The notes: generated by a model from the letters alone, not told the origin. Positions 31,339-57,293 are shown, numbered from the stretch's first letter. The stretch is DNA of 64,000 nucleotides from Psammoneis japonica (GCA_008632985.1 QPGO01000070.1:1-64000); one strand, 5' to 3'. Numbers and translations are program-made.

Positions 31339-31599
31339 GGTTTCACGACAATTGGGCCGGTAGTTTGGTAGCTTTCTACGTAGCCTACGTAAGTTGAAGT
31401 GAAACGTCATCATGCGCGCCTGCCAACCACTCAAATTTTCAAAAATTCTCCGCACAAATTCGTGCTTTCTCAAACACCTCACCCGGTGCCTCCTGTCATC
31501 ACGAGAAAGCGAGGGACCTGGATCCTTTTTTAAAGTGAGTTCAGAGACACCCTCCAGGATAACATACTGAAAAAGGATCCAGGAAAACATGGAGGAAGA

Positions 31600-32550: not shown

Positions 32551-34981
32551 TGTGCAGCATGCCTCGCTGCTGGACAACACGGCGAGACCGTGCATGAGCC
32601 TCTTGCACGTGGCAACGCAGCATTGTTGACACGTGCCTGGGAAGCACGACCACAGGAGGGCGTGGCTCTGGGTCTCAGGCAATTCCAGAAGGATGCCAAG
32701 AGAGCATCCGTGTGAAGCACACTGGCCCGTTGTCTGGCCCACGATGGCAGCGTGATTCCACACGATGACATCACTCGTGCATGGCACATGATGGCTTGAC
32801 TCGCACGATCCATGATGCGAACGCACGATCGATTCGATGCGATCCAAATGCGAACAAATGGGGATTTGGCGAGATTCCCTGTTCGCATGATCCCATTTTC
32901 TCTACTCTAAACTAGCTCATGATTTTCACAACGACAAAGTCGTAACACATCTTCTTTTTCAGCGCCTGGCACATGCACAGGGCACAGCAATGTCACTCCC
33001 GCATGTTGTGCGAGGTGACGAAATCTACAGAAACGAAACTACGAAATGTTGGCAGGACCGACAAATCTCAAAACGACCATGAAGAAGCGGATTGAGCCGC
33101 CGATTCCGTTCGCACGGCCGGAGAAGAAAGAGCCACAGCAGGGCGAGCACCAGATGTTCAAGCTGCGTGACAACCCTGCTGATCCGGACAGTCCAACGCA
33201 CGAGATGGGCATCCCGCACCTTTCTGTGGCTACATGCGAGACACTCCTGATCTTTCTGCGCAATGTGAATTGCGTGCACGAAGGACAAAACATGACGACC
33301 GGGCCAGCGAAATTTGCCCTCATGCATGACCTGCTGCAGGGCAATGCTCTGACGTCATTCAATGATGCCGCTGACAAGCAGGCATCCGAAACCAACGCTG
33401 CGTGTGCAGCATGCGTCGCGAAGCTAAAGGAAAGCATCTTCCCACACAGGGCGGCACTGCTGCAGAAGCGTTGTCTGAGGCGCTTCATGCGCAAGCCCGC
33501 AGAGGTTTCCACTCGTGACTGCATCACGAGAGCTGTTGAAATTAACGGCTGTGTCTCTCAGTTTCCACCCATGATGGAGGATGGAGCAGCACCGGCACCA
33601 TTGCCTGATGACGAACCATGTGATGTGTTCGAGTGCGGCATGCCAAACGCATGGCAGAAGTTCATGACGTTACAGAATTTTGACCCGTTGGTGCATGCCA
33701 TCGCCGAATTTGTGCAGTTCTGCGAGCGCATTGAGCAGGTCGAGCTTGCCGAAGGTAACCTGGACCAACATGCCAAGGTTCCACGCAAGCGGGGACGTAG
33801 AACGGACAATCCTGAGTCGTTGATCATGAACCAACGGAGTGCCCAGAAGTCGTGCATGCTGCACGGGACTGGCTGTGGACATCATGCGGAGGATTGCCGT
33901 CAGCTTGAGCACCACGTGAAACGTGTCAAGACTGGACATTCCAATGACGGAGGCAGCAAGCCCAATCAAAAACCTCGGAATGAGGAAGACATCAATGCTC
34001 TCATCGGATCGAAGGTCGAGGAGTTCTTTGCCAATGCTCAGAAAAAGCGCAAGGCATGCGAGGAGGAGCTCAATCACTTCCGCGACCTCAACTCAAGTGA
34101 TTCCGAAGATTCGGAAGCCTGAGAAGGGGGCCGACACGACACAGGCAGTTTTAATGCATTAGATGAATGCACAAATGAACAACTGAACTGCCATCATACA
34201 CGTGTTGTAGGCCAATCGCGGTTTTATCCATTGCCCATCATGCTGAGTGGAAGTGCATGGAAACCAGAAAGCAGAAGCTCATCCACTTAAATGACAAGCG
34301 TGAAAATCAGAAACGCAAGGAGTGTCAATGTACCGCAGGGCAATTGGTGCTTGTCAAACAGGAACAATCCTCTAAATGCGGTTCTGACAGCTGCGCAGGA
34401 CCCGCCAGAGTTGTCCGTGCATGTGACAACGGCGCGTTGCACATCCAGAACGGAGCGCTGACAGACACGTGCAATCTGTGGCAGATTGCACCCTGTCACC
34501 AGCAGCAAGACATTCTGTCACTTGACGGCCCTGATCATGGGGGAGTGTGCAGCATGCCTCGCTGCTGGACAACACGGCGAGACCGTGCACAAGCCTCTTG
34601 CATGTGGCAACGCAGCATTGTCAACACGCACCTGGGAAGCACGACCACAGGAGGGCGTGGCTCTGGGTCTTGGGCAATTCCAGAAGGATGCTAAGAGAGC
34701 ATCCGTGTGAAGCACACTGGCCCGTCGTCTGGCCCATGATGGCAGCGTGATTCCACATGATGACATCACTTGTGCATGGCGCGTGATGGCTTGATTCGCA
34801 CGATCCATGATGCGAACGCACGATCGATTTGATGCGATCCAAGTGCGAATGAACAGGGATTTGGCAAGATTCCCCATTCGCACGATCCCATTTTCTCTAC
34901 TCTAAACTAGCTCACAATTTTCACAACAACAAAGTCGCAACACATCTTCTTTTTCAGCGCCCAGTGCATGCATGGGGCACA
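32551..34981 (+). mobile_element. Non-autonomous Gypsy-type LTR element (gag plus integrase C-terminal tail; PR/RT/RH/IN core missing)
   Basis: 436-bp direct repeats at 32551-32986 and 34546-34981 with TGTGC...GCACA ends. PPT gggggag precedes the 3' LTR. No TSD seen. Confidence 0.85.
33046..34122 (+). CDS. Gag-like protein of the LTR element (Tyr-free, degenerate)
   Basis: 358-aa ORF with a zinc-knuckle-like CMLHGTGCGHHAEDC and no Tyr residues. Confidence 0.75.
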   Translation: MLAGPTNLKTTMKKRIEPPIPFARPEKKEPQQGEHQMFKLRDNPADPDSPTHEMGIPHLSVATCETLLIFLRNVNCVHEGQNMTTGPAKFALMHDLLQGNALTSFNDAADKQASETNAACAACVAKLKESIFPHRAALLQKRCLRRFMRKPAEVSTRDCITRAVEINGCVSQFPPMMEDGAAPAPLPDDEPCDVFECGMPNAWQKFMTLQNFDPLVHAIAEFVQFCERIEQVELAEGNLDQHAKVPRKRGRRTDNPESLIMNQRSAQKSCMLHGTGCGHHAEDCRQLEHHVKRVKTGHSNDGGSKPNQKPRNEEDINALIGSKVEEFFANAQKKRKACEEELNHFRDLNSSDSEDSEA

Positions 34982-35750
34982 GTGAACCATGTCACCAAGT
35001 GTCTGGTGTGCACGTTCCACTGTGGCATTCGCCTGTGGATTCCGCTTGCTCGTGGGTTTCTTCAAAATCCCACAATCATTTTTAATCATCTGGCTGAATT
35101 CTGCCATAAATTCTGTCCCACGGTCATAAACCACCTGGGTTGGCCACGGACATCTGCATGGCCACGTTTGTTCTACGACGTTTGCTGCGACGTAGGAATG
35201 CGGTCCCGAATTATGCCATGTTGAGGGCACCCACAACCTGGTCGCTGACGCTCTTAGTCGCCTTCGGCTGGCACCCAGCTTGCCTTCCGAGGCCAATCCG
35301 GATGTAAAAGACACTCCATCGAGTCGTCCTTTGCATGAAGCCTTCAATGCAGAGGCGCAAGACGCCGCACCTCTGCCCATTAGCTTCAGGCACATTCAAA
35401 AAGAACAACAAAAGGACAAGCGCCTGCTCTCGTGAGCTGAAGACTCGTCCGACTGCTCCATTCGCGTGCATCGTGGGGGAGGGTCATCACGACAGTTAAT
35501 CTGTCATAAGGACAAAATCGCAGTGCCACAGTCATTGCAGGTTCCGCTGACTGAATGGCACCACGAGACACTGTGTCATCCAGGTGAGACACGTGCGGAA
35601 ACATCTGTTGCCCAGCACTTCTGCTGGCCCAGTGTGAGGTCTACGGTGCATTCTACGTGCGTCAAGTGTGATCGATGTCAGAAGACAAAACGCCGAACGC
35701 AGCGCCATGGGAAGCTGCCAGAAAAAGTCGCTGAGACAATTCCATGACAG
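34982..35750. mobile_element. Gypsy integrase fragments in both orientations
   Basis: Minus strand 34982-35170 gives YDRGTEF...RNPQANATVERAHQTLGDM. Plus strand 35466-35747 gives an H2C2 finger (HETLCHPG...CVKCDRCQ). Confidence 0.75.
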
Positions 35751-36075
35751 GAAGGTTGTGAGCTGTCCAATGCAGACTGTTCGTCGAAAGATTTCGGGTG
35801 CTTTGCGAGATGGCTCAACCGAGAAATGGGATTGACACAAATGTCGGAAGAAGGAGCAGCAGCGCACAGAGTGTCGGAGCCAAGTTCCATTTCAGATGAC
35901 AAGGAAATTTCAAAGGATGAAAAAAGGAAGAAGGAGACGACAAATCCAGCACAAGAGGAAGAACCGCCGACGACCTTCACCTTGCTGTTGCTTTTTATAA
36001 AATGGTCACCGTTGTTTGGAATTTTGAGAGGAAGGATGATGTCAGATGGATGCGTGGCAGCAATGTGACTCATGA

Positions 36076-36418
36076 TGACATCACAAAACAAGACAATGAG
36101 AATGCAGTCATTGGACATTGCAAAATTTGTCCAAAATGGATGGATGCAAGACAGGACACATGCATGTGTTTGCATGTGTTTGGGAAAAAAAACAGCAATG
36201 GCCAGCATTGAGTCTGCAAGTCCACCATTTTTACCGTGCTGACATCACAAAACAAGATGACAGGGATGTGGTCATTTGACATAGAAGGTTTCTGGCAAAA
36301 TTTGTCAAAAACGGATGGATGCAAGACATGACACATGCACATGATGTTTGGGGAAAAACGCACGACTGAAAACACAGGTTTGCATTAAGTCTGCAAGTCT
36401 GCCGTTTTTACCGTGCTT
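36076..36418 (+). repeat. Degenerate tandem repeat of ~165-180 bp within TpA-depleted relic DNA
   Basis: Both units begin tgacatcacaaaacaaga, contain ggatggatgcaagaca and end gtctgcaagtc...tttttaccgtgct. Confidence 0.7.
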
Positions 36419-37659
36419 CATCGTGGTAAAAAAATTGCATGTGTTCAATGCATGTGTGTTTCACATGCATGGTGCTGCCACAAGGCCATTTGATTGTGCC
36501 ACCAGGCAAAAATCTTATGGCCGCCTTCATTGACCTTGCAGTGTCAGCACAGTGTGGCATGGATTGTTGACAATTTGTTTTCAAATGCACATCATGCTGT
36601 TTCACCAACCCGATTGTGTCAACGGATCTGCACTTGTGCCACTTGTTTTGCAGATCTCAGTGTGGGAAAAATCAACAGGCTTTCAGAACACAGAATTCTG
36701 CATGCATCCTTGGTGGTGCTTTCTCAATCATGGCAGCCCTTGGCAAAGACTGGTGTGATGTCCAGAGCAGCAGCAAGCTTGTTGATGCCTGCCAGCTCAT
36801 CCTTGTTCCAATTAAAAACAATCGCAGTTGGCTTGTTTCACATTCTGTCAACACACAAAAAATGAAGAAGGAAGCCAATTTGATGGGTTGTTTCCTCCAT
36901 TCAAAAGCATCACACAGATCATGCCCTGGTTGAGGCCAATGAAGCAGTGAACACAGTCGCAAATGCAATCCCCGCCGTCCCAAAAATTGAAGAAAGATTG
37001 GAAATGATTGCCAAAATCTGCCCTGGCCCTCATGTCTCAACCAACAGCATTGCCATCAAAATCCAAGTGACACATGGGGCCAAAATGTTGATTGTTTGTT
37101 GATCCATTTTTTGTGATCGCAGAAACCAATGGCATGGAGCGTCCAAGTGTGACCAAAAAGCATCGCTTGTGCCAAGGCACAATGGTGATTGTTGTTGAAT
37201 TGAGCTTGTGTTGTTGTCGTTGCAACGACGAGAAGGGGAGCAACGTGATGGCAATGAAAGCAAAGAAGAAAAGTTGCATCATCTGTCCCGCAGCAAGTGG
37301 CGACACACGGGCAATTCGTGGTGCAAAATCTGATCCAGCATGCATTGAGCAACGTTGACATCGCCATGGCTGAGAACCGTCGCTGCACATGCCGCCTCAA
37401 ATGATGGAGGTTGTTCCGCAGCCGAGTTCATGTTCAGCAACCATGCTGCACTATATTGAGCTTACATGGGATCCATTTCCAGAGACGAAGACACGACGGT
37501 GGTTGAGTTCGCATGCGGGACCTGCAGCTCCGGAATTGGAGTGGGCTGTAAATTCGGACTGATGGAAGAAATGCTGGTTTTGTGATTGCTGGCATCGCCG
37601 TAACTGCTGGTGGTTTCGTATGTTTCATAACGCATAAGTAGATATGTTTAATAGACGGC

Positions 37660-39719: not shown

Positions 39720-42700
39720 CGTGCCCGGTCGCTTGACGATGATGCTTACAGCTTCTTGAAAATCCTTGGCTTTTTGCACTACGACCCATGCCCGCCTTGC
39801 CAACCCACCTGTGAAGCTCCCTGTTGGCCGAAGTGCAAAAACCCATCATGTCTGATGTCCGAAAATCGTTCGCATTAAAACACATGCATCGCTGTTCTTG
39901 GATTCTCGCGTTCAGAATCAACAGATGCCAGCAGACCTGTGGGCAGAGTGCTGCAGTGCAAAATTCAAGATCAATGACAAGAGAGTCAAATCATGGGCAG
40001 ATGGTTGAAGAAGCCACAAGGCAGTGTCAACGGGGTTTCGAATTTGACGGAAGAGAACAGCGTTGTTGTTGCTTGCGGAGCGAGTTTGTGCGAAACGGAG
40101 TGACAACATGGCAGTCAAGCCCAACCCCTTTTCCATCTTTGTACATTCCTTGGATCAACTCAAGGGCAACAACAAAGCCTGTGCATCCTGGTTCCGCACC
40201 AACATGGAAGACTTTTTAGAATCCCTCCGTTTGGACACGAGAGGATCTCAGCCACTTTGTCGGACCCAAGTCTTTGGCAAAACCCATTGACGTTTGTCAT
40301 GATCTTGCAAACCCAAGTTGTTCTTTGCCACCAAGCATCAATGGAAGGGCGTCATGGGATCACTTTTAATGGGTGCAATTTCGGATGAGACAATTTTGAG
40401 GATTGCAGCTTCACGCCAGTCGATTGACATCATTTTTTTTAATCACCAAATGCGATGGCCAGTTTTTGTGCCACTCTAGAGGCTCATCTGCACTGCCGTC
40501 TGCACGCTTCAAGAACGAATGGACCACTTGTGCCTTCCACACAAAAATGGATCTGTGTTTGTGTTGAACAGTGGACAGACAGGAACGGGCACAAGTCCCC
40601 GGGTGCAAGTTCCGGCCCCTCTCTGATTGCACACTCTAAACCATGTGCTGCTTGGACCAATCAAAGGAGTTCAAGCACTGCTCCAGAATATTTTTTTTAC
40701 ATTCAATGACCAATGGGTCTGCCTGCCCCCGTGGCATCAGCAGAATTGAGCAAAGCCAAGGGTGGCATCACGCAATGACGGCACCAGAGGCACCAGCAAC
40801 CAACAACAACATTTTCACAATTTGCCAGACACAACAGAGCTTCATCGCACACTCTTCCTGTCGAGATGCTTGCCTCTTGTGAAGACATTTCAAAGGAAAC
40901 TACGATGCTTCAGCATCACACACATCTCATGAGAGTCCGCGCAATCTTGACTCCAAAATGCCATTCTGAATTGGCAGGGGAAGGTGCAGAATGTCTTCAG
41001 GTTTGTGCAAAAGGTGAGAGCATCGAAACCTTTTCCTGTCACAGAAAATGGGAAAAGACAATTTCAAGAAATCGGTTGGGCATTGACGGCTGGATCAGGT
41101 GTTGTCAAGTGCGCGCGCAAGTTTGCAAAGAGAGCACCACGGTGCACTCACCATGCAATTGATGATGGATGTGTTGAGGACACCAAGAGGGTCCAAGAAT
41201 TTGGACCCACCACTCCCAATTGGAGGTCTGCAAGATTTGGACCCTTCGCACTCTACACACTCATCAAAACATTCAAGACGCACGGTGTGCTGTTGGTTTT
41301 GCTTTCAAGTTTGCATCAACAGCGTCGCCGAAGGCGATGCTTCGATCGTTGCATGTTGCATTGCTGCATGAATTTTTTGAAATCGTGTGGCCGCTGTAGA
41401 AATTGTGCGGGGACAAAGACACAACGGCCAATTGCATTCACTGTGAAGAATTTAGAGCGCCAGTTGCATTTTGTGCCACATTGCGTAGATTCCTGCACCA
41501 CACAGCGTCAGAACAATTCCAGCCACATGGGGACACACATGATAAATTGGACGCTTCACTGAATGGCTGTGTCTCATTGTCTTCATGAACAGATGTTAAA
41601 GATGAAACATTTGACGCCACTCATCCAAAAGAGCTTCGTTTGCGATTTGCCTGCACAGACTTTGAACAATGGCATCAAGAATGACTGAACTGTTTCATCA
41701 AACTCAGAGGCAACCACTGATTTAAGGATGGATCATCATTCAGTGGTCAATTTTATGAAGAGCTTGTAAATGCTTGAAAATGACTCAGATTTGCAACACC
41801 AAATGCGTGTGGCATTGGGCCGGCCAAAAGAATTCAGTGACAGGTTGAACTTTGTCCTTTCGCAAGACATCACAGAATGCATTGACAATGAATGTGAAGG
41901 TTTGGGATCTCTAGAATGATGACTGCAGGTGTCTTGCAGCCAGTCAAATGCCAATTGTTGGCCTTTCCTGGAAAGTTGCAGCTCATTTGCCATGAACACA
42001 ACCCGATTTTGACAAAAAAGGGTGGTTTGTCGAATGCAACAACTGCGCCAAATGCAATGCTGGCATTTGAAGGTTGACAAGGGCAGCTCATGTGCAGGTT
42101 TGCCAGCCCTGACAGAGGCCAGATGAGCTGACAGAAGAAGTTTCTTTGGATGATTTAGAATTTTTGAGGTCAGGAGTGATGGTCATTGGGTGAGGTCAGC
42201 CTGTGTTTCACAAGGCAAGCCCATTGTCTTGAGGCATCACATGAGGAAAAGGCTTGTTTCATGTGGCTCCAAGGAAGGAGAGAGACATGTGTTGACAACT
42301 TTCCTGTTGCTGCAATGAGTTTCATTCACAAGAGAATTCCAAGAATCAGTCAGAGGATGCAGATGACCCTGTTCCCAGTCATGTGCAGCAACACAATGAC
42401 TGTGTGCCACAAGCTCCAGGGGGGGAGCACAATTGTGAGCCTGGTTTGCTCAACAAGAACTTTGACTGCAGCAGAGACAACTGGGTTTGTGAGGTTCTGT
42501 CCAGAGTGACCAAAAGAAAGGAACTTTATCTTGGGAAGAAAAGCTTGATGGCAGGAAAATGAAGTGCATGCCATTGGCATTGAGTGAGTTCCTTGGTCAC
42601 TTCAGGAGCACAAAAGGGCTCCAAAAAAGCTGTCAGGCTCCTGCTGCAAATGACTGTGCAAGGCATTGCAACTGAAGATTGCAGTCATCAGAAAACAATT

Positions 42701-42991
42701 TTTTTAACAACACAGCAACAATCTAGGCTTGCATCATGTGATTGCCCTTGTGAGGCGTGGAAACAAGGGGGTTGAGCAAGTTGTTTGCGCTCACGCAATC
42801 CCCGGTTTGAAATGCGAAATAAAGTGAGCACAAAAAGCACAAAATCCAAAAATCCATCATCTTGACGGAAAAAAGAAAAATGTCACATCCACACATGAAG
42901 AAGACAAATGCAAGACAAAAAAGCAACTGGCATTGTGACATTTAACACAAATGACCTGAAAACAGAAAAATGGCCTGCCGATTGGCTGGGA
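39720..42991. repeat. TpA-depleted relic DNA, unclassified
   Basis: Sparse TA and low CG distally. No intact ORF. Confidence 0.5.
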
Positions 42992-43155
42992 TGCAAGCTC
43001 AAGCTGAGGTTGATGTCAAAACAAAGAAGTGGGCAGACCAAAGAGAGGGAGAGCCTGAGCGTCAGTGAGCACTGGCGAGCCCTCTCAAACGGCTGCGTCA
43101 ATCTAACATCCAAAATCAATGCTGTGTGTCAGAAGTGTGCGAGTGAGTTGCTGCA
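42992..43155 (-). repeat. Gypsy 3' LTR
   Basis: Direct repeat of 48430-48593, adjacent to the PPT. Confidence 0.9.
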
Positions 43156-46100
43156 CTCTTCCCTTCCATGATCCGAAAGAACCAGAGGATCATGCAAAGG
43201 GCCAAAACCAAAGGACCAAAACCCAAAGAAATCATGCAGGAGGAAACCCAGGTGTTGGGAAGAAAACCCCCTGACAAACCACGAAAAGGAATCAGGCGCC
43301 GAATGTTGAGGCACTCAACCACATGAGGAGCTTGTCGAACTGAAAGTGCGCCATTCACATGCACTTGAACAATGGGACAAGGGCCATGAGCACGAGGCTT
43401 GAGTGTAGACGGGTCAACCGACTTGATTGGAACTTGATCACCCACTTGACAATTGCAGGATCTTCTCTTGGCATTGGCTCTTTGCAAATTGTCGTTGATC
43501 AACGTCTGGCGATGGGCTTGAACAGTCAACAAGTCTGCCAGCACAGAGACATCTAGGATCATGTCACGTCCGAATGCCATGGCACCTGGTGAAGTCTGTA
43601 AAGCATGGGAAACAGCACAGCGAGTTGCATGCATTGCAGTTGCCAAAGCATTGTCCACGAGGCTAGCTGCATCCTGAAGGTTTTGAGGTGGACCAGAAGC
43701 AATGAGCGTGCGCAACACATTGCCGACGGTCTGGTGCATTCGTTCGCAAATCGCATTGGCTTGAGGGTTGTACGAAGCAGTCGGCACATCATCAATTCCG
43801 GCTCGTTGCAACAGCATCTGAAAGTCGCACCCGGTGAACTTGCCGCCATTGTCATGGATGCATCAATTCGGTCTGGGACAGCGTGCAAGCCAGCAGTTTT
43901 CAAATCGGTTGGCAACATGTTGGGCAGTTTTGTTTTCAATTCTCACCAGTTCAACAAGATTGGAGACAGGATCAATGCAGGTCAACGCCCGAAACTGAAT
44001 CTCTCCATTCGGCACTTTGATTTTCCACGGGCCAATGAGGTCAACCGCCACTTCCGACCAGGGAGTCAACGGAGCTTCTTGCTCGGGCAACTCTCCACAG
44101 CCAGGACCCAAAGTTTTGTTGCATTGACAATCAGCACAAGAGCGTTCATCACACATGCGACACAATCCAGGATGACAACAATGAGCCTGGATCGTTTCAC
44201 GCATGCGTTGGCTTCCGGCATGGCCAAGGACGAGATGACACCACTGTAAGATGTCGGGCATGAGCACAGTCGGCAAACAGATTTTCCATTGTCCTGGAGG
44301 ATCATTCGGTCGCATGCGACAACACACAAGCGGTTGATTGTTCACATGTTCCACGAGGAAACAATCAGGGTGAGCAATGCGCATCTGGTTCAGCTGTTGG
44401 TCCTCGAACTGGTGCTCCTGAATGCGTTGCAACGTCATTGGATTCTGCATCTCCTGCATCATGGGGTGGTTCAAGAAGGAATCAAACAGTTCCGGCTCAT
44501 CCACAAAGAAAGAGAAAAAGTGTGAGTGGCCTTCATTTTCAATGTTGCGACAACACTTGAATCGGCGTGCGCCGAGCTCCAAGTCCTCATCGTGGAAATC
44601 CTTGACTTCGGATGGTTCCTCACTCGGCACCAACTTTGAATCAAGCGGAGCAAAATCAACAACAGTTCCTTTGCCCGGAGCCAAGCTCTTCCCTTCAGAG
44701 GGAGGATCCACACGAGGCAAACGAGAAAAACAATCGGCCAAGACATTCAATCGACCTTCAATGCAATGAAATTGAGGAGCAAAGTCTTCCAGAAAGAGTC
44801 GCCAACGAAGGACGCGTTGTGAATTCAAGGTGCGAAAGGTGAGATTCTTGTGGTCAGTGAATGCATGCAAGTCGCCGCCAAGGAGCATCGTTCGGCATTC
44901 GCAGAAGCACGTGACAATGGCCAACAGTTCTTTTTTGATTGTTGAACAGTTTTGTTGCGCCGCATTGAGCTTTCGAGACCAGCACGCAATTGGTTTTCCA
45001 TCCTGTGCAATCACTGCGCCCATCTGGCAATCACTGGCATCGGTGTGGATGTGGAAGGGTTTGTCATGATTCGGGTGCGCCATCAATGTTTCGGCCACTG
45101 GGACTGCTTTCATCTCATCGAACGCCGATTGACATTCCGTTGTCCATGTCCACGAGCCTTCACCTGTGAGATCTGTCAAGGGTTTCAACAGGTGAGAACG
45201 CCGAGGCCACATGTTGCGACAATGCGTTGCAGCACCAAGGAACGAACGAAGCTGCTTGATGTTTTCCGGAGGTTGCATTCGCAGGATGGCCTCCACCTTT
45301 TTCTTCCATGGACGAATTCCAGTCGGAGTCAGCCAATGCCCAAGGAAATCCGTTTCCTGCACACACCATTCGCATTTCAAGGGATTTACTTTGAACCCAG
45401 CTTCTTCCAAGCATTGTGAGAGTTTGTCAAGACGGTCAAGGTGAATGTCAAAGTCGTCATCAAATTGAGCAAGATCATCAACACACGCGTCAACGTCCAA
45501 GTCGTGAACAGTTTTCTCAATCAAATGTTGCGCAATGTCTGGAGCCGGCTTCAGACCCATCGCTGAACGGCAGTGTCGGTGCTTTCCAAAGGGTGTCACA
45601 ATTGTCGTCAAATCCTTTGAGTCGTCATCTAATTCGAACGTACAGCACATCATCGAAAGGTCCAGTTTGGTCAAAAATTTGCACCCGGCTCTCTTCTGCA
45701 GCACATCTTGAATGATCGGTAAAGGACAAACCTTGCGTTTGAGAGCTTTGTTGAGTTCCCGAAAATTGCTGAGCCACCGCACTCGACCATCCTTCTTCGG
45801 CCGAATAAAAGCACCAGCAGCCCATTCCGAAGTTCCGGCTTCTTCAAGAACGCCAAGAGCCACCAAATGATCCAGTTCTCGTTTGAACGTCTCGAGATCA
45901 TTGTGCGGCACTGCATGCGCTCGAGAATGGTAAGGAACAGCGTTAGGATCAATGTCAAGGTGAACTTTTTTGCCAGTGTACTTGCCGAGAGTGCCATCAA
46001 AAAGAGCAGTGTGTTTTTCCAACACGAGGTGTAATTTTTCTTGTTGTTTGGTAGCAAGATGCTTTTGAGCCGACGCCACTTCAGAAGGGGACGTCTCCTC

Positions 46101-46342
46101 ATACTTTGCATCGAGGATGCAGCTGTCCCATGCATCATCATCGTCAGCTGGCTCATCCGCCAAGTCATCAAGCCACTGCTGGATGCCAATCCGATGGTTT
46201 CTTGGTTTCATTGCAATGCTTGAATCAAGCCACTTGACAATTCCATGTTCAAAGTCTAACGTGACACCTGCTTTCGCCAAGAAGTCCTGTCCAAGGATCA
46301 CATCATGTTGGCAGGGTGAGTCAAACACATGCGCATGCATGC

Positions 46343-46668
46343 CATCAATGCGCTTGGTCTTGTCAAATTCAGGGAGCACCATGTCCCGCAGTTGAACGCA
46401 ACGAGTCGATTTGAATTCTCCCGCTGACGTCCAAAACTTCGCAACAATTGGTCTTGTTTCCTCCATTGCTGGCACCGCTCCAACTGGTGACACCTGAGAA
46501 TGAATCATCAATGCGCTTGGTCTTGTCAAATTCAGGGAGCACCATGTCCCGCAGTTGAACGCAATGAGTCGATTTGAATTCTCCCGCTGACATCCAAAAC
46601 TTCGCAACAATTGGTCCTGTTTCCTCCATTGCTGGCACCGCTCCAACTGGTGACACCCGAGAATGAAT
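46343..46668. repeat. 163-bp tandem duplication in the Gypsy protease region (frameshifting)
   Basis: Units 46343-46505 and 46506-46668 both start catcaatgcgcttgg. Confidence 0.9.
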
Positions 46669-48429
46669 CATTGAATGGGTTCCACCGGAGTCGAGTGACA
46701 CCCACATCACGCGCTTGCTTTCCTTATCTTGGATGAATCGTGCCGCGAACAAGGTTGCAGGGACCATGCCCAAAGGTTCAATTGGTTTTGTTTTTGGGGT
46801 TGGTGCAGCGCACTCGATTCCCACATCATCTTTGTCATTCACAGCACAATTTTCGAAATCGTCATCATCAAACAAATCAGCAGCATGTGCACAACAATCA
46901 TCAGTGCAATCAGTGCAATCATCAAACATGTGGGATTCAGGAGCGACACACTCGGACGACAGCTCTTCAAGCTCATTGGGTCAGTGTCGACCGCGTCCTG
47001 AGAAGCAACCACCAGGTCTAAAACTTCCCGCTCCACCTCGACACTCACGAGGCCCTCCGACAGAATCAAGATGATGGCTTTCAGCAGACCAATCATCAGG
47101 AGGAGCCATTCTGGCCGGATTGCTGTAACCGCCGCCGTCTGCATTGGCTTGGGTGTCGTTTTGACATTGCATGTGGGAGCCACCATCTTCATGATGCTCG
47201 CCGCTGTTGCCATCAGAGTTGTGGTTTCCTCGACTGCCACAATTTCCTCGGCCACCACCACGACCTTGATGGCCATGGCCTTGCCAACCACGACCTTGAT
47301 TTCCACCACAACCATGACCTCCACCTCGACCGCCACCTCGACCACCATGGCCACCACATCCGCGACCGCCACGATCAGTTCTTGGACGGTGGTTGTTGGA
47401 GTCGGGATTCACGACGCAATCTTTCCACTTGTGATTGTGAGTGTGCAACGGACATTGGGTTTCTGGGTCAATGCGATTGCCTTTCTTCTTGTTCGAGCCA
47501 CCTTTGGACTGTCTGTCTTTTCGCTTTTTCGATGTCTTCTTGTTCCCATCCGCAAACGATTTCTCCGTGCTCATGTGCGTGACAATTTCCGCCAGTGTGT
47601 CATTTCCAATCGTGCGTCCTGCTCTTGCACACATTTCACGCCACGGCAGAGGAAAGCCATCGAAAATCATCTTCTTCTTCTGGTTCTGAGCAACAACTGG
47701 ATATTTCCCGGCAACTTGTTTGTGCATCGCACCAAAGTTTCCATTCGATCCACGTGTGCCTGCACTTCAACGTCACACGGCTTTTTAAGAGCAAGCAAGC
47801 ATTCAATCATTGTGTCACGAGCTTCAGTTTCACAGTGCGACAAACAAAAACGAGCCAATTCTTGGTTGAAACGAGCCACCGTCTTCTGCGCATCTGGAAT
47901 TGCCATGGTGAGATTAGACCATTCATCTTCAGCTGTGTCCGTCAACACTTCTTCAAAATTGTCAAACAATTCTTCTCCTGCTGCAGTGAATTCGAGTTTT
48001 GCAGCCAGTTTACGAAAACGATCTTCCACAAACAACAACGCTTCAATCCCATCACTTCCGTCAAAACAAGGACATTTTTTCGTACGCGTGCTACCATCAT
48101 CATGCGATTGAGTCAACTTTGCAAGTTCCAAATCCGAGTGGGCAAATTTCGCAGCATGCAAAATGCACGGTTCCTTGAGGCTCTCGCGATTGCTCATCAG
48201 GCCAAGTTGGTCCACCAAGAAACTGTTTCAAGCACTCTACCTTCGATTCGAGTTGTGCCACCCGAATCGCCAAATCCTGTTCGCGTTGTTTTCGTGTCTT
48301 CTTTTCTCGTTCTTGTTCCAAAGCCCAACTCGCTGCCTTCACTCTCAAAGTTCTTTTCTCTTGTTTCGCAAGCCTGTCAGTTGTGTCGTTGTTTCTCATT
48401 CAGCTCTTTACAATCGACTGTAATTACAG

Positions 48430-48593
48430 TGCAAGCTCAAGCTGAGGTTGATGTTAAAACAAAGAAGTGAGTAGACCGAAGAGAGGGAGAGCCTAAGCGT
48501 CAGCGAGCACTGGCGAGCCCTCTCAAACGGCTACGTTAATCTAATGTCCAAAATTAACACCACATGTCAGAAGTGTGCGAGTGAGTTACTGCA
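48430..48593 (-). repeat. Gypsy 5' LTR
   Basis: Direct repeat of 42992-43155; retains more TA sites. Confidence 0.9.
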
Positions 48594-50395
48594 CGTTGAA
48601 CGCGCGGAAATTGGCACATTATGACTGAATGCTGGCACAATGACTGAAGACAATGACCGTCTTCCTCCGAAAAAATATCGTATCTCCTCATCGCTCGGGA
48701 TCACGATTTCAGATGACCTACCTCTAGATGATGATTCATCTCTCTAGCTACTAGAAGAAGAGTAGCCCTGGCTAGCAACACTCATATAAATCACCATGAG
48801 TGTTATAGGGAAGACAGAGAATGAAGCATCGATTTCGTGTTTGAATACAATCTGTACAAGAACTCTTCGGAATACATTGCTACTTCTTCTGCTTTTTGCG
48901 GCGCTCCTCGATGCTCATGGCGTGTTTACAAATTTTCGAGAATTTCTGCAGCTTGATGCATCCATGACGCTGTCAAGCAGCTCAAGGCAGGAGAAAACGC
49001 AAATTAGTTACGCTCCTTCTCGCCCATCGCAGAAACCGTTTCCTCGCACACTTTTTCTTGATGACCAAGGAAAGGCGTTCGTTTTGGATGATGGCGTTAT
49101 TGAACCCGCGAAACAAAAACATCGAACTGTCGATGATATTTGGGAAGGGAGCCGAGATCCAGAGCACCAGTACTTCATTTCGATGGGAGTGTTGTATCAT
49201 CCAGTCACACTGACGGGAGAGCTAGGTTATTCTTGCGTACCTGCCGCCGATTGGCAAAAGCGATTCTACCCGACATGCAATAGCTTTCATGAAACAATCT
49301 TCAATCCCGCCGGTGGCGACTCTGAATCGGACGATACGAGAAAACTGATCATGGGCAAGTCAAGAGAGGTGCAAGTCACTGACGGTATTTTTATGGACTA
49401 TCTTGGATCTGGCAAGACAAGAGACGCATGGAAGGTACACAAGGATGATGAAGCTGTGGTTCTAAAGACGTTGAAGGTTGATCATTCCTTCACACCGGAA
49501 GTGTACCACCATCAAAAGATCGATGCCGTTGCTTCAGAAAGACTGACGGCGTCTCCTTATGTCATTGACATTTATGGCTTCTGTGGTGCATCTGTCATGA
49601 ACGAATTGGGAGTCGAGTATGGAGAGTACGAAACTTTGACAGTAGAAGAAAAACTCCGCTATTCACGAGACATTGCACATGGAATGAAGGATATGCATAG
49701 CATTGACGGCTCGAAACTTGCCAAACTAGTCCACTCGGACGTAAGACGCGGCAATATTATGTTTACAATGGACCGAAGTGTCTTGAAGCTTAGTGATTTC
49801 AACAGAGGTTTTTATCTCGGATGGAACAAGAAAAAGAAGGACCCTTGTGCTGTGAAACGGCCAAAGCTCAATCGCCCACCACGACGGGACAAGTTTTCGG
49901 CACCGGAAGAAACCTATCGGCAGATTGTCAATGAGAAATCAGACGTCTATCACCTGGGAGGAATGTTGTTTTACATTTTGACTGGTAGACGACCGTATAG
50001 TTTCAACGACAAGAGCCAGTTGACTAGCTCTGGCCAGCCGTTGCTGACAGACAATTGGGTTATGCCTACACTTCCAGCGGATGTACGACAAAGCAAAGAT
50101 CCAGCATCATTGCAATGCGCAAGGCAGTCAAATCATGCTATCGCTATGAAAAAGAGGATCGCGCTAGTGCAAAAGAGATTTTTCAAATACTTGACAATGC
50201 AATGAAATCCACAGCAAAGCCGAACTCATAAAATCACGAGATTTTGATTCACGCATTAGCATGCTTTTTCTCTAGGTCGAGATTTCTCCTTGCAAGACGA
50301 TCAGGCTCATTTGAAATTGTGAGGTGCCCCTCCTTTTCTATACGGTATATTGGATATCCGAGAATGTAGATAGGAGTGTTTCATAGGACATATCA
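48594..50395 (+). repeat. Segmental duplication copy B (kinase gene plus flanks)
   Basis: Matches 29482-31338 and begins exactly at the Gypsy LTR edge. Confidence 0.9.
48796..50231 (+). CDS. Type II membrane kinase-like protein, paralogue B (1-nt deletion near 50106)
   Basis: Almost identical to 29726-31162; ccagcatc versus ccagcaatc shifts the last ~40 codons. Confidence 0.8.
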
Positions 50396-50736
50396 TGTTG
50401 TACCTATTGAATCTTCATTCTTGTATACGTTATAACTTTACTTCACTTTTTCGCGCGCGAAGCGAATTTTTTGCGAACTCGGAAAGTGACAAGAAGCTCG
50501 TTTCACCGCACCACCAAATGAGATCAAGAACGTCTGCGGCGAGACAAAAACTGGCAAACCTTCATTTTGGACACAACGTCAGTTGCGGTGATGCGAGAAA
50601 CTCTCTCTTTCTCTTGAATAGTGACCGAACCAAAACGTTTCACCCCAGCCACCGAACCGAGCAAGGGTGCGGTAACAACTGATGAAAAATCAGTCAATGC
50701 ACCACATGCGACAGCAACAAAAATAGCAATAATAAC

Positions 50737-52103
50737 ATGCCTACTGCTCGTGAGAAGTCAACACCTCCTCAACGAAGCACTGCTTGGATTGTTATTGACT
50801 CGTCAAAACGATTGATATGGTGCTTTTTGATCTTGGCTGGAATAGTAGAGTCCATCGGAGTCATTACTAATTTCAAAATACTCGTCTTGCTCGAAGACAA
50901 CCATCTCCGAGGCCAATCATACTTCAAGCTCCCAATACCCAAAGAGATTCCAATAACAAAGAATGAAGTCCTTTATCCGCAAGTAGTTTTTCTTTCCGAA
51001 AAGTCGTTTACCTCGACGAATAATCGCACCCTTTCCGACGAGAACAATCTCATGATGCCCACCGAGGGGTGGCACCGTCATCCTCAACCCAACGACATGA
51101 TTCCCATCTTGGGAAATCCACTTCAGATGGATGGCAAGAATGGCACAGACGTATGTCAAGCTGCGGATTGGCAATCACGGTCCTATCCAACGTGCAATGG
51201 CTTTCATGAGTTGAATCTTGATTTTGGCGATGACAACAAGAAGGACGTGTCTATTGAATTTCTTGGCAACGGTCAACAGCGAGATGCATGGAAGGTTACC
51301 AGCGATAATACAGAATCCATTGTACTGAAAACTCTAAGAATGAGAGGATCCTTTTCTCAATTGACCTTTTACCGTCAACGGGTGGATTCAATCGTGTCGG
51401 AACGACTCTCGTCGTCGCCAAGCATTATCAATGTGTACGGCTATTGCGGGATGTCGGCCATGAATGAGATGGGTGTCGCCTACGACGTCAAGGAACGATT
51501 GACGTATGCAGAACGAATTAGGTTTGGTCGAGACTTGGCGTCCGCAATGGCGGATTTGCATGAAGTAGGCAACAAGCCATACTCCATGATTGCTCATGGT
51601 GACGTTCGCAGAGGCAACATTATGTTTTCTGCTGACAAGTCTGTTTTGAAGCTACACGACTTTAACCAGGGATCCTTTTTAGGCTTCAACCCAAACACAA
51701 ACGAGCCCTGTGGCTTTCAACGCGTCCAAGCCGTTCCACGACCACCGCGCCGCGACAAGTTTTCTGCTCCCGAAGAATCCTACCAACAAGTCCTGACGGA
51801 GAAGACCGACGTCTACCACCTTGGCAGCATTTTGTTTTTCATAATGACTGGCGGAAAGCCATACCTATTCAACAAGAAGAGCGACTTGGCCGAGGACGGG
51901 AATCCACCTCTGTCGGACGATTGGCTCTTGCCGGATTTGCCACCCGACAAGCAACACCACACCGACCCAGCTATTGTCACCTTGAAGGATACCATGTACA
52001 CGTGCTATCGCTACAAACCACAAAACCGACCCACAGCACGACAAGTATTTGAAAGCTCGACAAGACTGTGAAAATGATTGAACAGAAGAATGGTAATGCA
52101 TAG
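50737..52103 (+). CDS. Type II membrane kinase-like protein (PKDCC/VLK-like), fourth family member
   Basis: TM helix. Motifs LGNGQQR, IVLK, HGDVRRGN, DFN and APEE. A probable missing A near 52052 (as read, the ORF stops at 52071). Confidence 0.8.
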
Positions 52104-52859: not shown

Positions 52860-53316
52860 GTTGCACTTGTGTTGATGTTTTGTGAAGGGTTGATGTGCGA
52901 TGTGCGTTTGTTCTGAATGAGAAAGCCGACGATAATGACGTAAGATGTCTGCGTAAAATTCTACCTGATTTCAGTACTGGCCATCATTTTGGCGGGAAGC
53001 GATGACGTAAGCGTCACTTAACGACAAACCGCTACCTTTCAAAATTTCACACCGACACAAGCGAGACACTGGCGACGCACCAACCACACGCAACCAACCG
53101 AGCAAACACGCAGAGACAACTCTATTGTAGGGCGACAAAGGAGTTTGTTTTGAAACCTTAAGGCAGCATACCTTCAAGAGTTGCATTCGCCTGCGCTTAC
53201 TTTGCTGTTACTAGCAAGACGAGTGCAATTTTTCTGTCTCAACTTCGCAATCCCAGGCCGCAGCGCACCTACCTTACAATTGCCATCACTTTGGAGAGCA
53301 GATCAAACTACAACAC

Positions 53317-56300
53317 ATGTCGACAGTTGCTTCCCCAAAAAGAAAAATAGTGTGGTTGCTTGTTGTTTTCATGATGCAACGAATAGCAAGAGCTGCCTTT
53401 GTTACAACTCGTCGACGGATCTTCACAACGACGGCTTTTCAACCTCATGCTCCAACAATTACAATTCAACCAAATCTTCGATTGTACGCGACCAAACGAC
53501 AAACAAAAAATGTGTATACATCCAAATTAACCGTTCGTGGCAGTCCCAACGAAAACCGACCCTTTCGTTTGGTAATTGTCGAATCGCCGAGCAAGTGTGA
53601 AACCATTTCCAAAATTCTTCAAAAATACGTTAAGGATCAGGACTTGCCTCATGACTACGTCGTGGCTTCCAGTATGGGTCACGTTCGGAATTTACCTAAA
53701 AGCAAGTCCAACAAAAATGAAACCATTGTCGGTGTTGATGTAGAGCACGGATACAAGCCGACCTATGAGATTTTACCCGGCAAGCACGGATTGGTTCAGG
53801 AATTGCAAAATCTCGCTGCACGTGCGGAGCACGTGGTGTTGGCCACCGACAAGGATCGCGAGGGCGAAGCTGTCGCTTGGCATTTGCTTCAATTGCTTCC
53901 CGATTCAACGGACTATTCACGTGTTGTCTTTTCGGAAATTACACCCACAGCCATTGCACACGCCATGCAAGAACCACACGATTTGGATTTAAATTTGGTC
54001 GAGGCTCAAGAGACGCGACGCGTCTTGGACCGACTGGCGGGATATACATTGTCGCCAATTTTGTGGAAAAAGATTGCACCCGGCCTATCGGCGGGACGAG
54101 TCCAGAGTGTCGGCATGGCGCTTGTCGTGCAACGCGAACGGGAGCGACTGGCGTTTCGGCCTGCCGAGTATTATGATTTGAACGGATGGTATACGCTGCA
54201 ACAACAGGAGCTGTCAGCCACCATGGTGGCCTTAAATGGTTTGCCATTGGCGACGGGGAGTGATTTTGTTAATTCTGGCAAGCTCAAGGCAAGGAAAAAG
54301 CATCACTTGGCGACAAACTCGAGTGCGCAAGAACTAGTGCAAGTGTTAAAAGGAGAGGATGTGTAAGTATGACTGTGGGTAATGCGATTCTTTTGTCGTC
54401 GTCGTTGTTGTTGTACTGGTCGTTCTTACTTTGCAGCGCTTATTTACTTCAGTACATGGACTGTCAAATCCGTCAAATCAACAAGACGACGAGAATCACC
54501 ACCGATGCCATTCATTACATCCACTTTGCAACAAGAAGCCAACAAGCGGTTGGGCATGTCTGTGTCGCAAACCATGCGAAATGCGCAATCCCTATATGAA
54601 GCAGGATATATATCGTATATGCGTACCGACTCGACCCGTATCAGCAACGACGCACATGCCGCGATTGAAAAGGTAGTCACAGACGCACATGGATCCAACC
54701 TGCTGGCACCCAAACGCCAAGACAACGACAAGAAAAAATCGAAAAAGAAACAAGGCAACAATGGCAAGTCTGTCGCTCCGCAAGACGCCCACGAGGCGAT
54801 TCGTCCTGCCGTGCAACAGGATGGAAGTTTTTTGCATCCAAGGCAACTCGATTCCACGGACGCTAACGCCATCAAGCTGTACGAATTAATTTATCAACGA
54901 ACCTTGGCATCCGGCATGACACCCCTCATTACCAATCAAACCTCTGTCGAAATCGACGGCACAAATAATGGAGAAACGACTGCAACCTTTCGAACCAGTG
55001 GCAGCATCGTTTTGGATGCGGGATACACACTAGCCATGCCCAAGGTGTCGAGTAGCGACTCGAAGATTCTGCCGCCACTGAAAGAGGGACAAGAATTGAC
55101 ATGTACACATTTGCAAGCGATGGATCACACGACGCAACCACCACCACGCTACACAGAAGCGAGTTTTGTCAAAAAGCTAGAAGAGCTCGGTGTTGGTCGA
55201 CCAAGCACGTATGCTCACACGGTTCAAATTTGAGAGATCGTGCATATGTCGGAACTCCCATTCGAGCCAAGGGTGGCAAGAATTATCGTTCCAAGGAAGC
55301 CATGACGGGACCGGCCATTAGTGCTCATCGTGCTGCGGGTGGAGAAGGTGAGTTTGACGAGATAATTTTGTGATAATGGCATGTGCGTTGCAGGCTTGGA
55401 CCCAATACCTATCTGCGTTTTCTTGTGTCACTTTCTAGAATTTACGGGTGGAGGTCGAGGACCCATGGTCCCTTCGCTCTCTGCTTTTGTGGTGTGTTCT
55501 CTCTTGGAGAACAACTGTCCAACCTACGTCGATCCTACCTTTACCGCTGGAATGGAGGAGAAGCTTGACGAGATCGCGCAAGGCGTAGACACCAATGAGA
55601 ATAGTCGGGTCGCCTATCTGGATGAGTTTTATGCTGGCGACGATGGTTTGGCAGCAAAGGTTGATCGCATAGACAAGGAGGTGAGTGCCAATGAGGCACG
55701 TCGTGCCATCTTCCTTCGCTTTTTTCCGACAGCAACGAAAGCAAGGAGGAAGATATTGGACTCTTTATTGGGCCGTGGGGACCTTATGTTCAGAAAATCT
55801 CAAACGAAACTACATCGGATATCGACGAGAAACCAATTACAGCTCCCTTGCCTCCTGGAATGGCAGCGGATTTGTCAACAATTACAGCCAAGACTCTTTC
55901 GGCGCTCTTGTCATCACGTGAGAAGAACGGGATTTTGCTTGGCACACATCCAGAGGATGGCCGAGATATTCGACTGAAGGTTGGTAGATTTGGTGCGTAT
56001 CTTCAATGGGGTAGGGACGATGAGGAAGGTACTACGTCACACTCTCTGCCAAAGCACATTGGAGGAATGCGAAACTTGGGAAACGGAAGCGAGGAAGAAG
56101 GCGATGAGTCGCTTGGGGCCATGATTGGACTCACCCTGGAAGACGCTGTTGGCTACGTTGGTCTTCCGAGAACTGTCTGCACGTTGAATGACATGCCCAT
56201 TACTGCCGCGATTGGTCCTTACGGGCCGTACTTAAAATACAACAATAGCTTTGCAAGTCTCTACGAAAAAGACGGAGATGTCCTGACGGTTGACAAGGAC

Positions 56301-57293
56301 ACAGCCCTTCGAATCGTTACCGAAGGAATTATCAACAAACCAAAAGGTAACGGCTCATGTGAGTTCTGGACGAAAAGATTCGCTGCGTCTAACGATTTCT
56401 CGTTTCTTGATTACATGGAATGCGTGATAGGTATGGCCAGAGGTGTCATTGCGGAGCTTGGTGAGAAAGACGGCAGTATGGTAAGAGTCAAAGATGGAAG
56501 GTTTGGTGTGTATATCAACTGGAAGAAAGTAAACGCAAAGCTGCCTGCCGAGTACAAAGATACTCCGGAAGAGGTGCCGCTAGAGGAGGCCTGGGATTTA
56601 ATACAAGCAAAGGCAGCCACAACTCCCTCAAAGGCAGGCGGCAGAAAGAAGAAAACGAAAAAGGGGGCAGCTATTAACGATTCTGTGGCATTGCCTCCGG
56701 CACCAAAACGTCCTCTTTCTGCTTATCTACATTTCTGCGCAGAGAAGAGACCGGAAGCATCCAAGAAATTCAGTTCGTTGGGAGACGTGTCAAAGGAATT
56801 ATCAAGATTATGGGCCGAAACAGATCCAGCAACCGTTGGAAACAGCGACCTTCGAAGCAAATACGAAGATCTCGCGGCTCAAGGCAAGAAGGAATATGAA
56901 GAAAAGATGAAGCAATGGAGGGAAGAATGCCAACAGGTCATGGCATCAGCTACCTCTGAAACAAAAAAGAAAAAGGGGGCTACAAAGAAGAATCGTGTCA
57001 AGAAGAAAGCTAGCGTGAAGAAAAGGAATGGGGCGGCGAAAAAGACCGCAGCAAATGGGTCGGCGCCAAAGAAGCCGCGCTCGGCATACATATATTTCTG
57101 TTCCGCGAATCGACCCGAAGCTGCAAAGAAGTTCAGCAAACTCGGAGACATATCAAAAGAATTGGCGAGGCTTTGGGCGGAGGCCGCATCTGATGGTGGA
57201 GAAGGAAGACGCGAGTTTGAAAGGCTTGCAGCGGAGGACAAGGTACGGTACGAGAAAGAAATGATCCAGTACAAAGCAGGCAGCTTTCAATAA
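53317..57293 (+). CDS. topA: Bacterial-type DNA topoisomerase IA with C-terminal repeats and two HMG boxes; probably organelle-targeted
   Basis: Motifs LVIVESPSK, LATDKDREGE, SAGRVQS, GYISYMRTDS, DAHEAIRP, GVGRPSTY, GRFG/GPYGPY repeats, PKRPLSAY and PKKPRSAY. Introns 54363-54452, 55348-55438 and 56347-56430. Apparent 1-nt indels near 55229 and ~55720. Confidence 0.9.

Follow-up and report, generated by a model that had tools for sequence, protein, structure and literature searches.

Probable Post-Insertional Conversion of TpA Steps in a Dead Ty3/Gypsy Retrotransposon and Other Transposon DNA of Psammoneis japonica

Introduction

Mettrop et al. followed mutation-accumulation lines of the chlorarachniophyte Bigelowiella natans and found that 231 of 302 new mutations fell into two integrated viral regions (bioRxiv 10.64898/2026.01.13.699255, 2026). 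According to the available text of this preprint, the mutations in the viral regions were, with one exception, A-to-G or T-to-C changes, every one of these at TpA. Mutation proceeded episodically, at about 1e-7 per site per generation. Clusters of windows poor in TpA and rich in CpA plus TpG were reported genome-wide, reverse transcriptase (RT) and DDE domains were enriched among TpA-poor genes, and an ADAT2-like enzyme was proposed (10.64898/2026.01.13.699255). Pairs of long terminal repeats (LTRs), dating bias, flanking-base preference, strand runs and island edges are not treated in the text of the preprint available to us; LTRs, retrotransposons and boundaries go unmentioned there. Here we analyse a stretch of 64,000 nucleotides from Psammoneis japonica (GCA_008632985.1, QPGO01000070.1:1-64000; hereafter the window), in which a Ty3/Gypsy retrotransposon lies at 42992-48593 next to a protein kinase gene.

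A preliminary description of this element had proposed that its two LTRs record a directional loss of TpA after insertion, that this loss exceeds CpG decay, and that the LTR next to the kinase was partly protected. The best explanation of the data reviewed below, and in our judgement a probable one, is that a dead minus-strand Gypsy element lies in a sharply bounded island where the host converts TpA to TpG or CpA after the copies of an element have separated. In a search of open-access papers and bioRxiv preprints, PMC2806351 included, we found no account of hypermutation directed at TpA in diatoms or other stramenopiles.

Differences between Paired Copies

The two LTRs were compared by an ungapped alignment of 42992-43156 with 48430-48594. 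They are identical at 147 of 165 positions, and the remaining 18 positions (10.9% raw divergence) are all transitions. The LTR is 164 nt long if read as TG...CA; one further C is common to both copies. Pyrimidine-purine steps hold 17 of the 18 differences, the other being a single G/A difference outside such a step. Seven TA steps are found in the right LTR only (48455, 48472, 48494/5, 48532/3, 48537, 48555 and 48587/8), and their counterparts on the left are CA four times and TG three times. The reverse case, TA on the left only, does not occur (0 vs. 7, binomial p = 0.016). Four more differences are CA/TG swaps, and at two others the right LTR has CG against CA or TG on the left. These counts reproduce those of the preliminary description: 18 transitions, seven TA steps confined to the right LTR with none going the other way, four swaps, and two CG differences. 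The left LTR (42992..43155, minus strand) is heavily depleted, with one TA remaining vs. 9.2 expected from its base counts. The gene-side right LTR (48430..48593, minus strand) retains eight and lies just outside the sharp edge of a TpA-poor island.

A duplicate of a 1.8-kb kinase gene within the window (29544-31342 vs. 48610-50399) provides a local control. The two gene copies show 42 transitions, 37 transversions, no swaps, and 67 TA steps common to both. At the rate of this duplicate, 18 transitions out of 18 have p = 1.3e-5, so the pattern of LTR differences is not that of the local background.

Two further pairs of copies are present in the window. The first consists of inverted Copia copies at 1674-5883 and 8226-12434, with 94.7% identity and 221 differences over 4,209 aligned bp. 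The second is a pair of 437-bp LTRs (32551-32987 and 34546-34982) with TG...CA ends and a polypurine run before the right copy. It encloses only about 1.56 kb with a 367-codon open reading frame (ORF) without a Pfam match, has no recognisable target-site duplication and thus is not a clean control bearing one, and shows 37 differences, all of them transitions, including 11 CA/TG swaps. Transitions and transversions number 18 and 0 in the Gypsy LTRs, 37 and 0 in the second LTR pair, and 205 and 16 in the Copia pair. The number of swaps that CpG decay alone would leave was estimated by our own arithmetic from how many CG steps both copies, or one of them, have kept. Compared with this expectation, 4 swaps are seen vs. 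about 0.1 in the Gypsy LTR pair, 11 vs. about 0.7 in the second LTR pair, and 29 vs. about 8 in the Copia pair. Such an excess is what saturating, independent loss of TA in both sisters would leave. Thus the proposal that TpA was lost after insertion is borne out by swaps far above the CpG-decay expectation. The proposal that TpA loss exceeds CpG decay holds per site: TpA observed/expected in the Gypsy element is 0.11 vs. 0.82 for CpG.

Three of the four swaps of the Gypsy LTRs are adjacent. With TA restored at them, the plus strand reads aaTAcTATAtg. On the strand of the element, this restored run would be TATA-like and lie about 31-37 nt into U3.

Direction of the Changes

A pair of LTRs is symmetric under a change of TA to TG/CA and under the rival route from CG through TG/CA to TA; therefore, an outgroup is needed. 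For this reason, the claim that the LTR pair shows the direction of mutation 'directly' could not be upheld. The pol ORF of the Gypsy element was aligned with 40 of 120 listed relatives (47-60% identity), a column being taken as conserved if at least 80% of the relatives agree. The element has changed at 19 of 21 conserved Tyr columns (13 to Cys, 5 to His, 1 to Arg) and at 37 of 346 other conserved columns. All 14 conserved Trp and all 10 conserved Gln are intact. The YxDD motif of RT now reads CVDD, and Tyr makes up 0.3% of pol vs. at least 2.6% in all 120 listed relatives. Since Tyr is encoded by TAY, Cys by TGY, and His by CAY, these replacements mean loss of TA rather than gain. Selection against UpA in RNA was considered as a cause and rejected: catalytic and invariant tyrosines are among the losses.

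The Copia pair was polarised with 36 outgroup proteins; two more (P0122 and P0123) were aligned but excluded from the consensus. Among the non-synonymous differences of TA vs. TG/CA, the outgroup backs TA in all five. At 13 Cys/His swaps between the copies, the outgroup has Tyr in nine, Arg in one, and is uninformative in three, making TA ancestral in nine of the ten informative cases. Copia copy 2 has changed at 17 of 20 conserved Tyr. As these losses are differences between two copies, they postdate the divergence of the copies. The Gypsy element provides a private case of its own: 45047 belongs to a Tyr codon in 16 family contigs (1685 of 1740 depth) and in the outgroup, and to His541 in this copy. 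TA is ancestral and TG/CA derived, as had been proposed. The polarised Tyr losses and Copia differences are A:T-to-G:C transitions, with CpG decay (G:C to A:T) running alongside, and they change TpA to TpG or CpA with the sole exception of one TGG to CGG change in Copia.

Cytosine deamination alone, in the form of repeat-induced point mutation (RIP) or methyl-CpG decay, would invert this order: CG would have turned into TG/CA in both LTRs and CA/TG then into TA in the right one, so that TA would be derived. Several observations do suit such a scheme. The family contigs carry CA at 48455; they have CG at 43066, 43136 and 48509, three sites that read TG or CA in this copy; three of the four differences within an internal tandem duplication of the element are of the CpG type; and one of the ten informative Copia swaps derives from CG (Arg215). 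CpG decay is thus real in the element, and it explains the two CG differences of the LTRs and a single TGA stop in the pol frame. However, the scheme predicts about 0.1 swaps in the Gypsy LTR pair where four are seen, and islands nearly without TpA (0.02-0.2) are the opposite of a RIP outcome. The internal region already contradicts it: Tyr is lost and not gained, Trp and Gln are kept, and there is one stop in about 1,180 codons. In the Copia pair, TA is ancestral in nine of ten informative swaps and five of five single differences. As the only process at work, cytosine deamination is very improbable.

Flanking Bases and Strand

How well TA is retained, expressed as its density in islands divided by that elsewhere in the window, varies with the neighbouring bases. 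Retention is lowest in RTAY (0.05), intermediate in RTAR and YTAY (0.13 each), and highest in YTAR (0.34; chi-square 61, p = 4e-13). The values are additive per strand on a log scale; by our own arithmetic, they fit a rate for 5'-T-A-pyrimidine about 2.7 times that for T-A-purine. In the transposon pairs, the YTAR context is found in 7 of the 12 TA steps that both copies retain, in 7 of the 20 that one copy retains, and in 6 of the 44 swaps (p = 0.003). In the Gypsy LTR pair, three swaps are RTAY and one is YTAY, the TA steps of the right LTR only are four YTAR, two YTAY and one RTAR, and the sole TA common to both LTRs is YTAR. The right LTR was hit, at a lower dose: fast-context sites were lost and slow-context sites kept. 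Hence the earlier view that the gene-side LTR was hit less stands, and 'partly protected' is an apt term for it. The derived TG and CA steps occur in same-strand runs: in each of the three pairs the number of runs is below expectation (z = -1.57, -1.77 and -1.36), with a by-hand combination of about -2.7.

A bias towards the sense strand is what editing of the retrotransposon RNA would leave. If an ADAR- or ADAT-like enzyme converted A to I before reverse transcription, copies would be born A-to-G mutated, and sense A-to-G changes do outnumber T-to-C at Tyr codons (13:5 in Gypsy, 12:4 in Copia copy 2). This bias is, however, expected from the T-A-pyrimidine preference as well, since the Tyr codon is TAY, and about a quarter of the Tyr-codon hits are antisense (5 of 18 in Gypsy, 4 of 16 in Copia copy 2). 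In B. natans, according to the available text, the targets are integrated DNA viruses (10.64898/2026.01.13.699255). RNA editing would moreover give identical LTRs, yet the LTRs differ, with both-strand swaps (four here and 11 in the pair at 32551/34546), so that we regard this origin as extremely improbable.

The flanking-base pattern itself can be read in two ways. Targeting of A at 5'-TAY and targeting of T on the opposite strand at 5'-RTA give the same sequence pattern, and a modified T at TpA, of the hydroxymethyl-uracil type, could mispair with G in silenced DNA and yield T-to-C. Hydroxymethyluracil in dinoflagellates favours TpA; we know of no evidence for a base of this type in diatoms. 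The tRNA adenosine deaminases act on A34, which follows an invariant U33, and the invariant 5' T found here fits this U33-A34 site. An ADAT2-like candidate is also what the B. natans authors proposed, as far as the available text goes (10.64898/2026.01.13.699255). A thymine target is, therefore, an unlikely alternative to an adenine one.

Islands and Their Edges

TpA observed/expected is 0.04-0.11 in four transposon stretches (the two Copia copies, 7984-9786 and the Gypsy element) and 0.44-0.60 in eleven gene stretches. At 1-kb resolution, the window contains five islands poor in TpA (0.02-0.2) and rich in CA/TG (1.4-2.0), located at 1-14, 15.5-17, 32-37, 40-48.4 and 63-64 kb. The edges of the islands are sharp to 100-200 bp, and all eight edges examined are equally abrupt. 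The Gypsy element lies in the island at 40000..48400 (TpA 0.02-0.13 per kb), whose part to the left of the element is also CpG-poor. At about 48400, 30 bp before the right LTR, the number of TA steps per 100 bp jumps from 0-3 to 3-9. Loss of TA is symmetric in the interior LTR pair (1 vs. 1) and the Copia pair (5 vs. 6), in contrast to the Gypsy LTR pair at the edge (0 vs. 7). The preliminary description had suggested dependence on chromatin domains, a suggestion based on one LTR at one island edge; chromatin may set the position of the edge, and chromatin near the kinase promoter may account for the sparing of the right LTR.

The change is confined to foreign or mobile DNA: the gene duplicate described above has a normal spectrum, and the edges separate the islands sharply from adjacent genes. 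GC content is 0.55-0.59 in the Copia copies vs. about 0.47 in genes. As a composition control only, a protein-based scan gave seven environmental loci related to the Gypsy element (33-59% identity), and their TpA observed/expected is 0.45-0.72.

The hypermutated Gypsy family is present in many copies, and a spared transposase ORF of the piggyBac type is single in the window; triggering by repeats and triggering by chromatin give the same pattern here. This ORF (27001-29079, minus strand, 692 codons, DDE_Tnp_1_7 E = 4e-55) has a normal TpA of 0.51, and the window contains no second copy. The ORF escaped hypermutation and may be single-copy, young or domesticated.

In some stretches (1-1000, 16001-17000, 36001-37000, 42001-43000 and 63001-64000), TpA (0.02-0.09) and CpG (0.08-0.36) are both lost and CA/TG reaches 1.7-2.0. 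Such stretches resemble repeats of greater age, where the two decay routes have led to the same end state. Two of 120 listed Copia relatives, P0223 and P0195, both environmental, have a Tyr content of 1.7% and 2.3% vs. a median of 4.2%, with Cys or His raised. In other uncultured hosts, too, this process may be at work at a less advanced stage.

The Element and Its Flanks

The element, a dead Ty3/Gypsy retrotransposon, occupies the right-hand end of its transposon island. Its location on the minus strand is a correction to the preliminary description: the right LTR is the 5' LTR and the left LTR the 3' LTR. The polypurine tract (43156..43167, minus strand), which reads GGAAGGGAAGAG on that strand, abuts the left LTR directly upstream, and this identifies the left LTR as the 3' one. 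The integrase core and pol C-terminus (43119..43862, minus strand) are in frame with the long ORF, with one TGA between; 194 aa of this part align at 60% identity with residues 948-1141 of the relative P0002. The TGA, the single in-frame stop (43863..43865, minus strand), stands in a column that is Arg in the relatives, and is of the CpG-decay type rather than a result of TpA loss. The pol ORF proper (43866..46667, minus strand) has 934 codons and contains protease, RT, RNase H and the integrase zinc finger; its 934-aa product matches RVT_1 and RT_RNaseH/RT_RNaseH_2 of Pfam, and its relatives have PF00665 downstream of RT. The order of protease, RT, RNase H and integrase is that of a Ty3/Gypsy pol, and direct TG...CA LTRs with a polypurine tract beside the 3' LTR are likewise present. 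An internal tandem duplication of 2 x 163 bp (46343..46668) is located at the start of the pol frame; 163 is not a multiple of three, and its two units have four differences, of which three are CG vs. TG/CA. The leader and gag-side part (46669..48429, minus strand) has no Pfam match and is TpA-depleted up to about 48400.

Family copies of the element were taken as contigs of a public sequencing run matched to it (2186 pieces). Their summed depth is about 2000-4000 over the element vs. 62 in the unique flank, showing that the family is multi-copy. A degenerate pattern of the LTR gave no match among metagenome contigs.

The protein kinase ORF to the right of the element (48790..50205, plus strand) has its first ATG at 48796, about 200 bp from the LTR, and a normal TpA of 0.52. 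Its paralogue is the kinase at 29675-31162; four plus-strand protein-kinase ORFs are found in the window in all (25490-26896, 29675-31162, 48790-50205 and 50686-52071). The two kinase copies (29544-31342 vs. 48610-50399) are 93% identical, and the duplicated segment stops exactly at the Gypsy LTR edge, a 49-bp indel aside. The right flank of the element (48594..48604, plus strand), CGTTGAACGCG, is identical to 29482-29492 upstream of the paralogous kinase and serves as an 'empty site' marker reaching the LTR edge. The left flank has no homologue at the paralogous empty site. The target-site duplication of 4-6 bp expected for Ty3/Gypsy was not found at the LTR edges, in agreement with the preliminary description: the left flank ends ...CTGGGA and the right one starts CGTTG. 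Because of the missing duplication and the unmatched left flank, the element either underwent rearrangement on its left side or arose by recombination between two copies. The premise that the two LTRs were identical at integration is consequently unsafe here, since the paralogous empty site matches the right flank only and the left flank is unrelated.

These flanks raise the question of a chimera. One insertion would have supplied the left LTR and most of the body, and another the right LTR together with about 30 bp, through recombination between elements or gene conversion; the asymmetry of TA would then reflect two histories or ages rather than promoter protection, with TpA hypermutation still the underlying process. 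The jump in TA density at about 48400, abrupt rather than gradual, also suits a junction, as does the right flank that matches the empty site exactly up to the LTR. Yet all eight edges examined in the window are equally abrupt, so that a sharp edge needs no recombination junction, and the LTRs differ at only 1 of 87 positions outside pyrimidine-purine steps, like sister LTRs or very close copies. A chimera is possible, although we consider it rather unlikely.

Elsewhere in the window, a bacterial-type topoisomerase (Toprim, Topoisom_bac and three C-terminal repeats) is fused to two HMG boxes at 53215-57293. The gene spans three adjacent ORFs, that is, it has short introns or frame breaks.

Proposed Mechanism

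In the proposed mechanism, the host genome would convert TpA to TpG or CpA in islands, by A-to-G change on one or the other DNA strand. The conversion acts on integrated DNA after copies separate, spares neighbouring genes, and runs near saturation. It favours 5'-T-A-pyrimidine and tends to hit same-strand neighbours, with CpG decay (CG to TG/CA) proceeding alongside at a lower rate per site. The left LTR, inside the island, would in this way have lost 11 of 12 inferable TA steps. The right LTR, beyond the edge and about 200 bp from the kinase start codon, would have lost only fast-context TA steps, now visible as the four swaps. TAA and TAG stops can be destroyed by conversion of TpA, whereas no stop can arise from it. 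Hence a single stop interrupts the element's frame of about 1,180 codons, although its catalytic tyrosines are gone.

The agent behind these directional changes, specific to dinucleotide and flanking base, arranged in domains, and later than the divergence of copies, may be a TadA/ADAT-type (tRNA-A34) adenine deaminase that works on DNA, by analogy with what has been proposed for B. natans. More broadly, and tentatively, since we hold it to be somewhat less probable than its negation, diatoms, or at least this one, may run an enzyme-driven, chromatin-bounded defence by DNA adenine deamination, homologous to or convergent with that of Bigelowiella. It would target 5'-T-A-pyrimidine in strand-coherent bursts and silence retrotransposons by erasing Tyr codons and TATA-like steps, with no stops created. 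If the two systems are homologous, such a 'reverse RIP' would be old and widespread in the Stramenopiles-Alveolata-Rhizaria (SAR) supergroup. If the proposal is true, transposon ages, gene predictions and GC content would be distorted in many algal genomes.

Several points weigh against the interpretation preferred here, that is, post-insertional conversion of TpA. First, the family contigs polarise one of the seven TA sites of the right LTR, 48455 (the listing comprises 40 of 393 variable places), and here all eight covering contigs (3615 of 3615 depth) have C, like the left LTR. The preliminary description would have been refuted by a family with TG/CA at the seven sites; this is found at 48455, the site polarised by family contigs. 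TA at 48455 may thus be a private, ordinary C-to-T gain, and by our own estimate about 0.4-0.8 differences of this kind are expected at the gene-duplicate rate. Alternatively, the sampled copies may descend from a master element already hit at this site. Second, among 30 listed differences within the element with near-total family support, this copy has T/A against C/G in the family at about 18, and the reverse at about 5. Many of these T/A-ward differences are CpG decay, the family having CG at 43066, 43136, 46565, 46999, 47867 and 48509. Third, among the polarised A:T-to-G:C changes a single one falls outside TpA, namely the CGG of Copia copy 1, where T was replaced by C at TpG. It affects an invariant Trp column, which in copy 2 is TGG (residue 601, 11931-11933). 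Fourth, the context preference was obtained by comparing transposon with genic DNA, whose ancestral contexts may differ, and the direction of change in Tyr codons relative to the flanking base goes in the predicted sense (16:4 vs. 9:5) without being significant (p = 0.44 to 0.51). Finally, with no target-site duplication and a mismatched left flank, the two LTRs may stem from two insertions.

Dating and Open Reading Frames

Dating of diatom transposons by LTR or consensus identity assumes one genome-wide rate, as far as the available text of the source indicates (10.1101/2025.10.24.684338). Raw divergence is 10.9% in the Gypsy LTRs, 8.5% in the second LTR pair, and 5.3% in the Copia pair. Outside pyrimidine-purine steps, the respective values are 1 of 87 (1.15%), 2 of 193 (1.04%) and 22 of 2053 (1.07%). 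With raw values of 5.3-10.9% vs. about 1%, ages derived from raw identity are therefore inflated five- to ten-fold. The predicted inflation of LTR dating is confirmed in this way, the Gypsy pair being affected about ten-fold. A plain family consensus is unsafe for polarising as well, because every copy is hit at the same sites.

Where the dead elements have stops, these are invariably TGA in Arg (CGA) columns. Gypsy has one and Copia copy 1 has two, both of them CGA in copy 2. Open frames of 934, 852 and 771 codons persist in hypermutated DNA. Since loss of TA cannot create stops, long open frames here are not evidence of activity, and hypermutated elements can pass as intact genes.

Comparison with Known Systems

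APOBEC3 enzymes edit retroviruses and LTR elements (PMC4866542, available in part), and the likeness to the present case is a deaminase-type hypermutation recorded in integrated retroelement copies. APOBEC editing is G-to-A on the plus strand, takes place during reverse transcription, leaves matching LTRs, and creates stops; none of these features fits here. ADAR hyperediting and the tRNA deaminases TadA and ADAT2/3 share with the present process an A-to-G change with a 5' U/T neighbour. In their known roles, however, ADAR and the tRNA deaminases act on RNA, whereas the changes described here are inherited in DNA, found on both strands, and later than integration. Neither the restriction to the sense strand nor the identical LTRs that characterise RNA hyperediting were found. 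DNA editing has been reported for amphioxus ADAT2, in the available part of the source (PMC10354150).

The RIP of Neurospora and other fungi is similar in that it is post-integration, DNA-level, transition-only, dinucleotide-specific and strand-coherent, and ruins LTR dating. In its chemistry it is the reverse: RIP changes CpA to TpA, raises AT and creates stops, whereas the process here removes TpA, raises GC and cannot create stops. Instead of the TpA excess and CpA/TpG deficit typical of RIP, the islands have the opposite composition. In place of frequent stops from Gln and Trp codons, 14 of 14 Trp and 10 of 10 Gln are retained, with one TGA, in an Arg column, in about 1,180 codons.

The closest counterpart is B. 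natans, and hypermutation of this kind was described in that other lineage only months ago. In both cases, as far as the available text of the preprint allows comparison, TpA is changed to TpG or CpA on either strand, only foreign or mobile DNA is affected, the spectrum elsewhere is normal, and TpA-poor windows are clustered. Depletion here is far deeper (0.02-0.1) than in the giant-virus region of B. natans (TpA 0.45 in that text), and the targets here are LTR retrotransposons. The host lineage differs from the chlorarachniophyte as well: the superoxide dismutase encoded in the window is nearest to diatoms among named relatives, the best of which are Attheya (68%), Thalassiosira (66%) and Ditylum (66%), with cryptophytes at 62-64% and no 100% match returned. 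By this protein, the host is probably a diatom. The long ORFs without introns in the window also speak against B. natans, whose genome is intron-rich. Compared with the available text of the B. natans preprint, the new handles on the mechanism are a 3' pyrimidine preference, same-strand runs, and edges of 100-200 bp that can cut through an LTR. The mutational genome defence, whose first report dates from April 2026 and concerns one chlorarachniophyte, would thus probably extend to a second, ecologically dominant algal lineage and to LTR retrotransposons hit near saturation.

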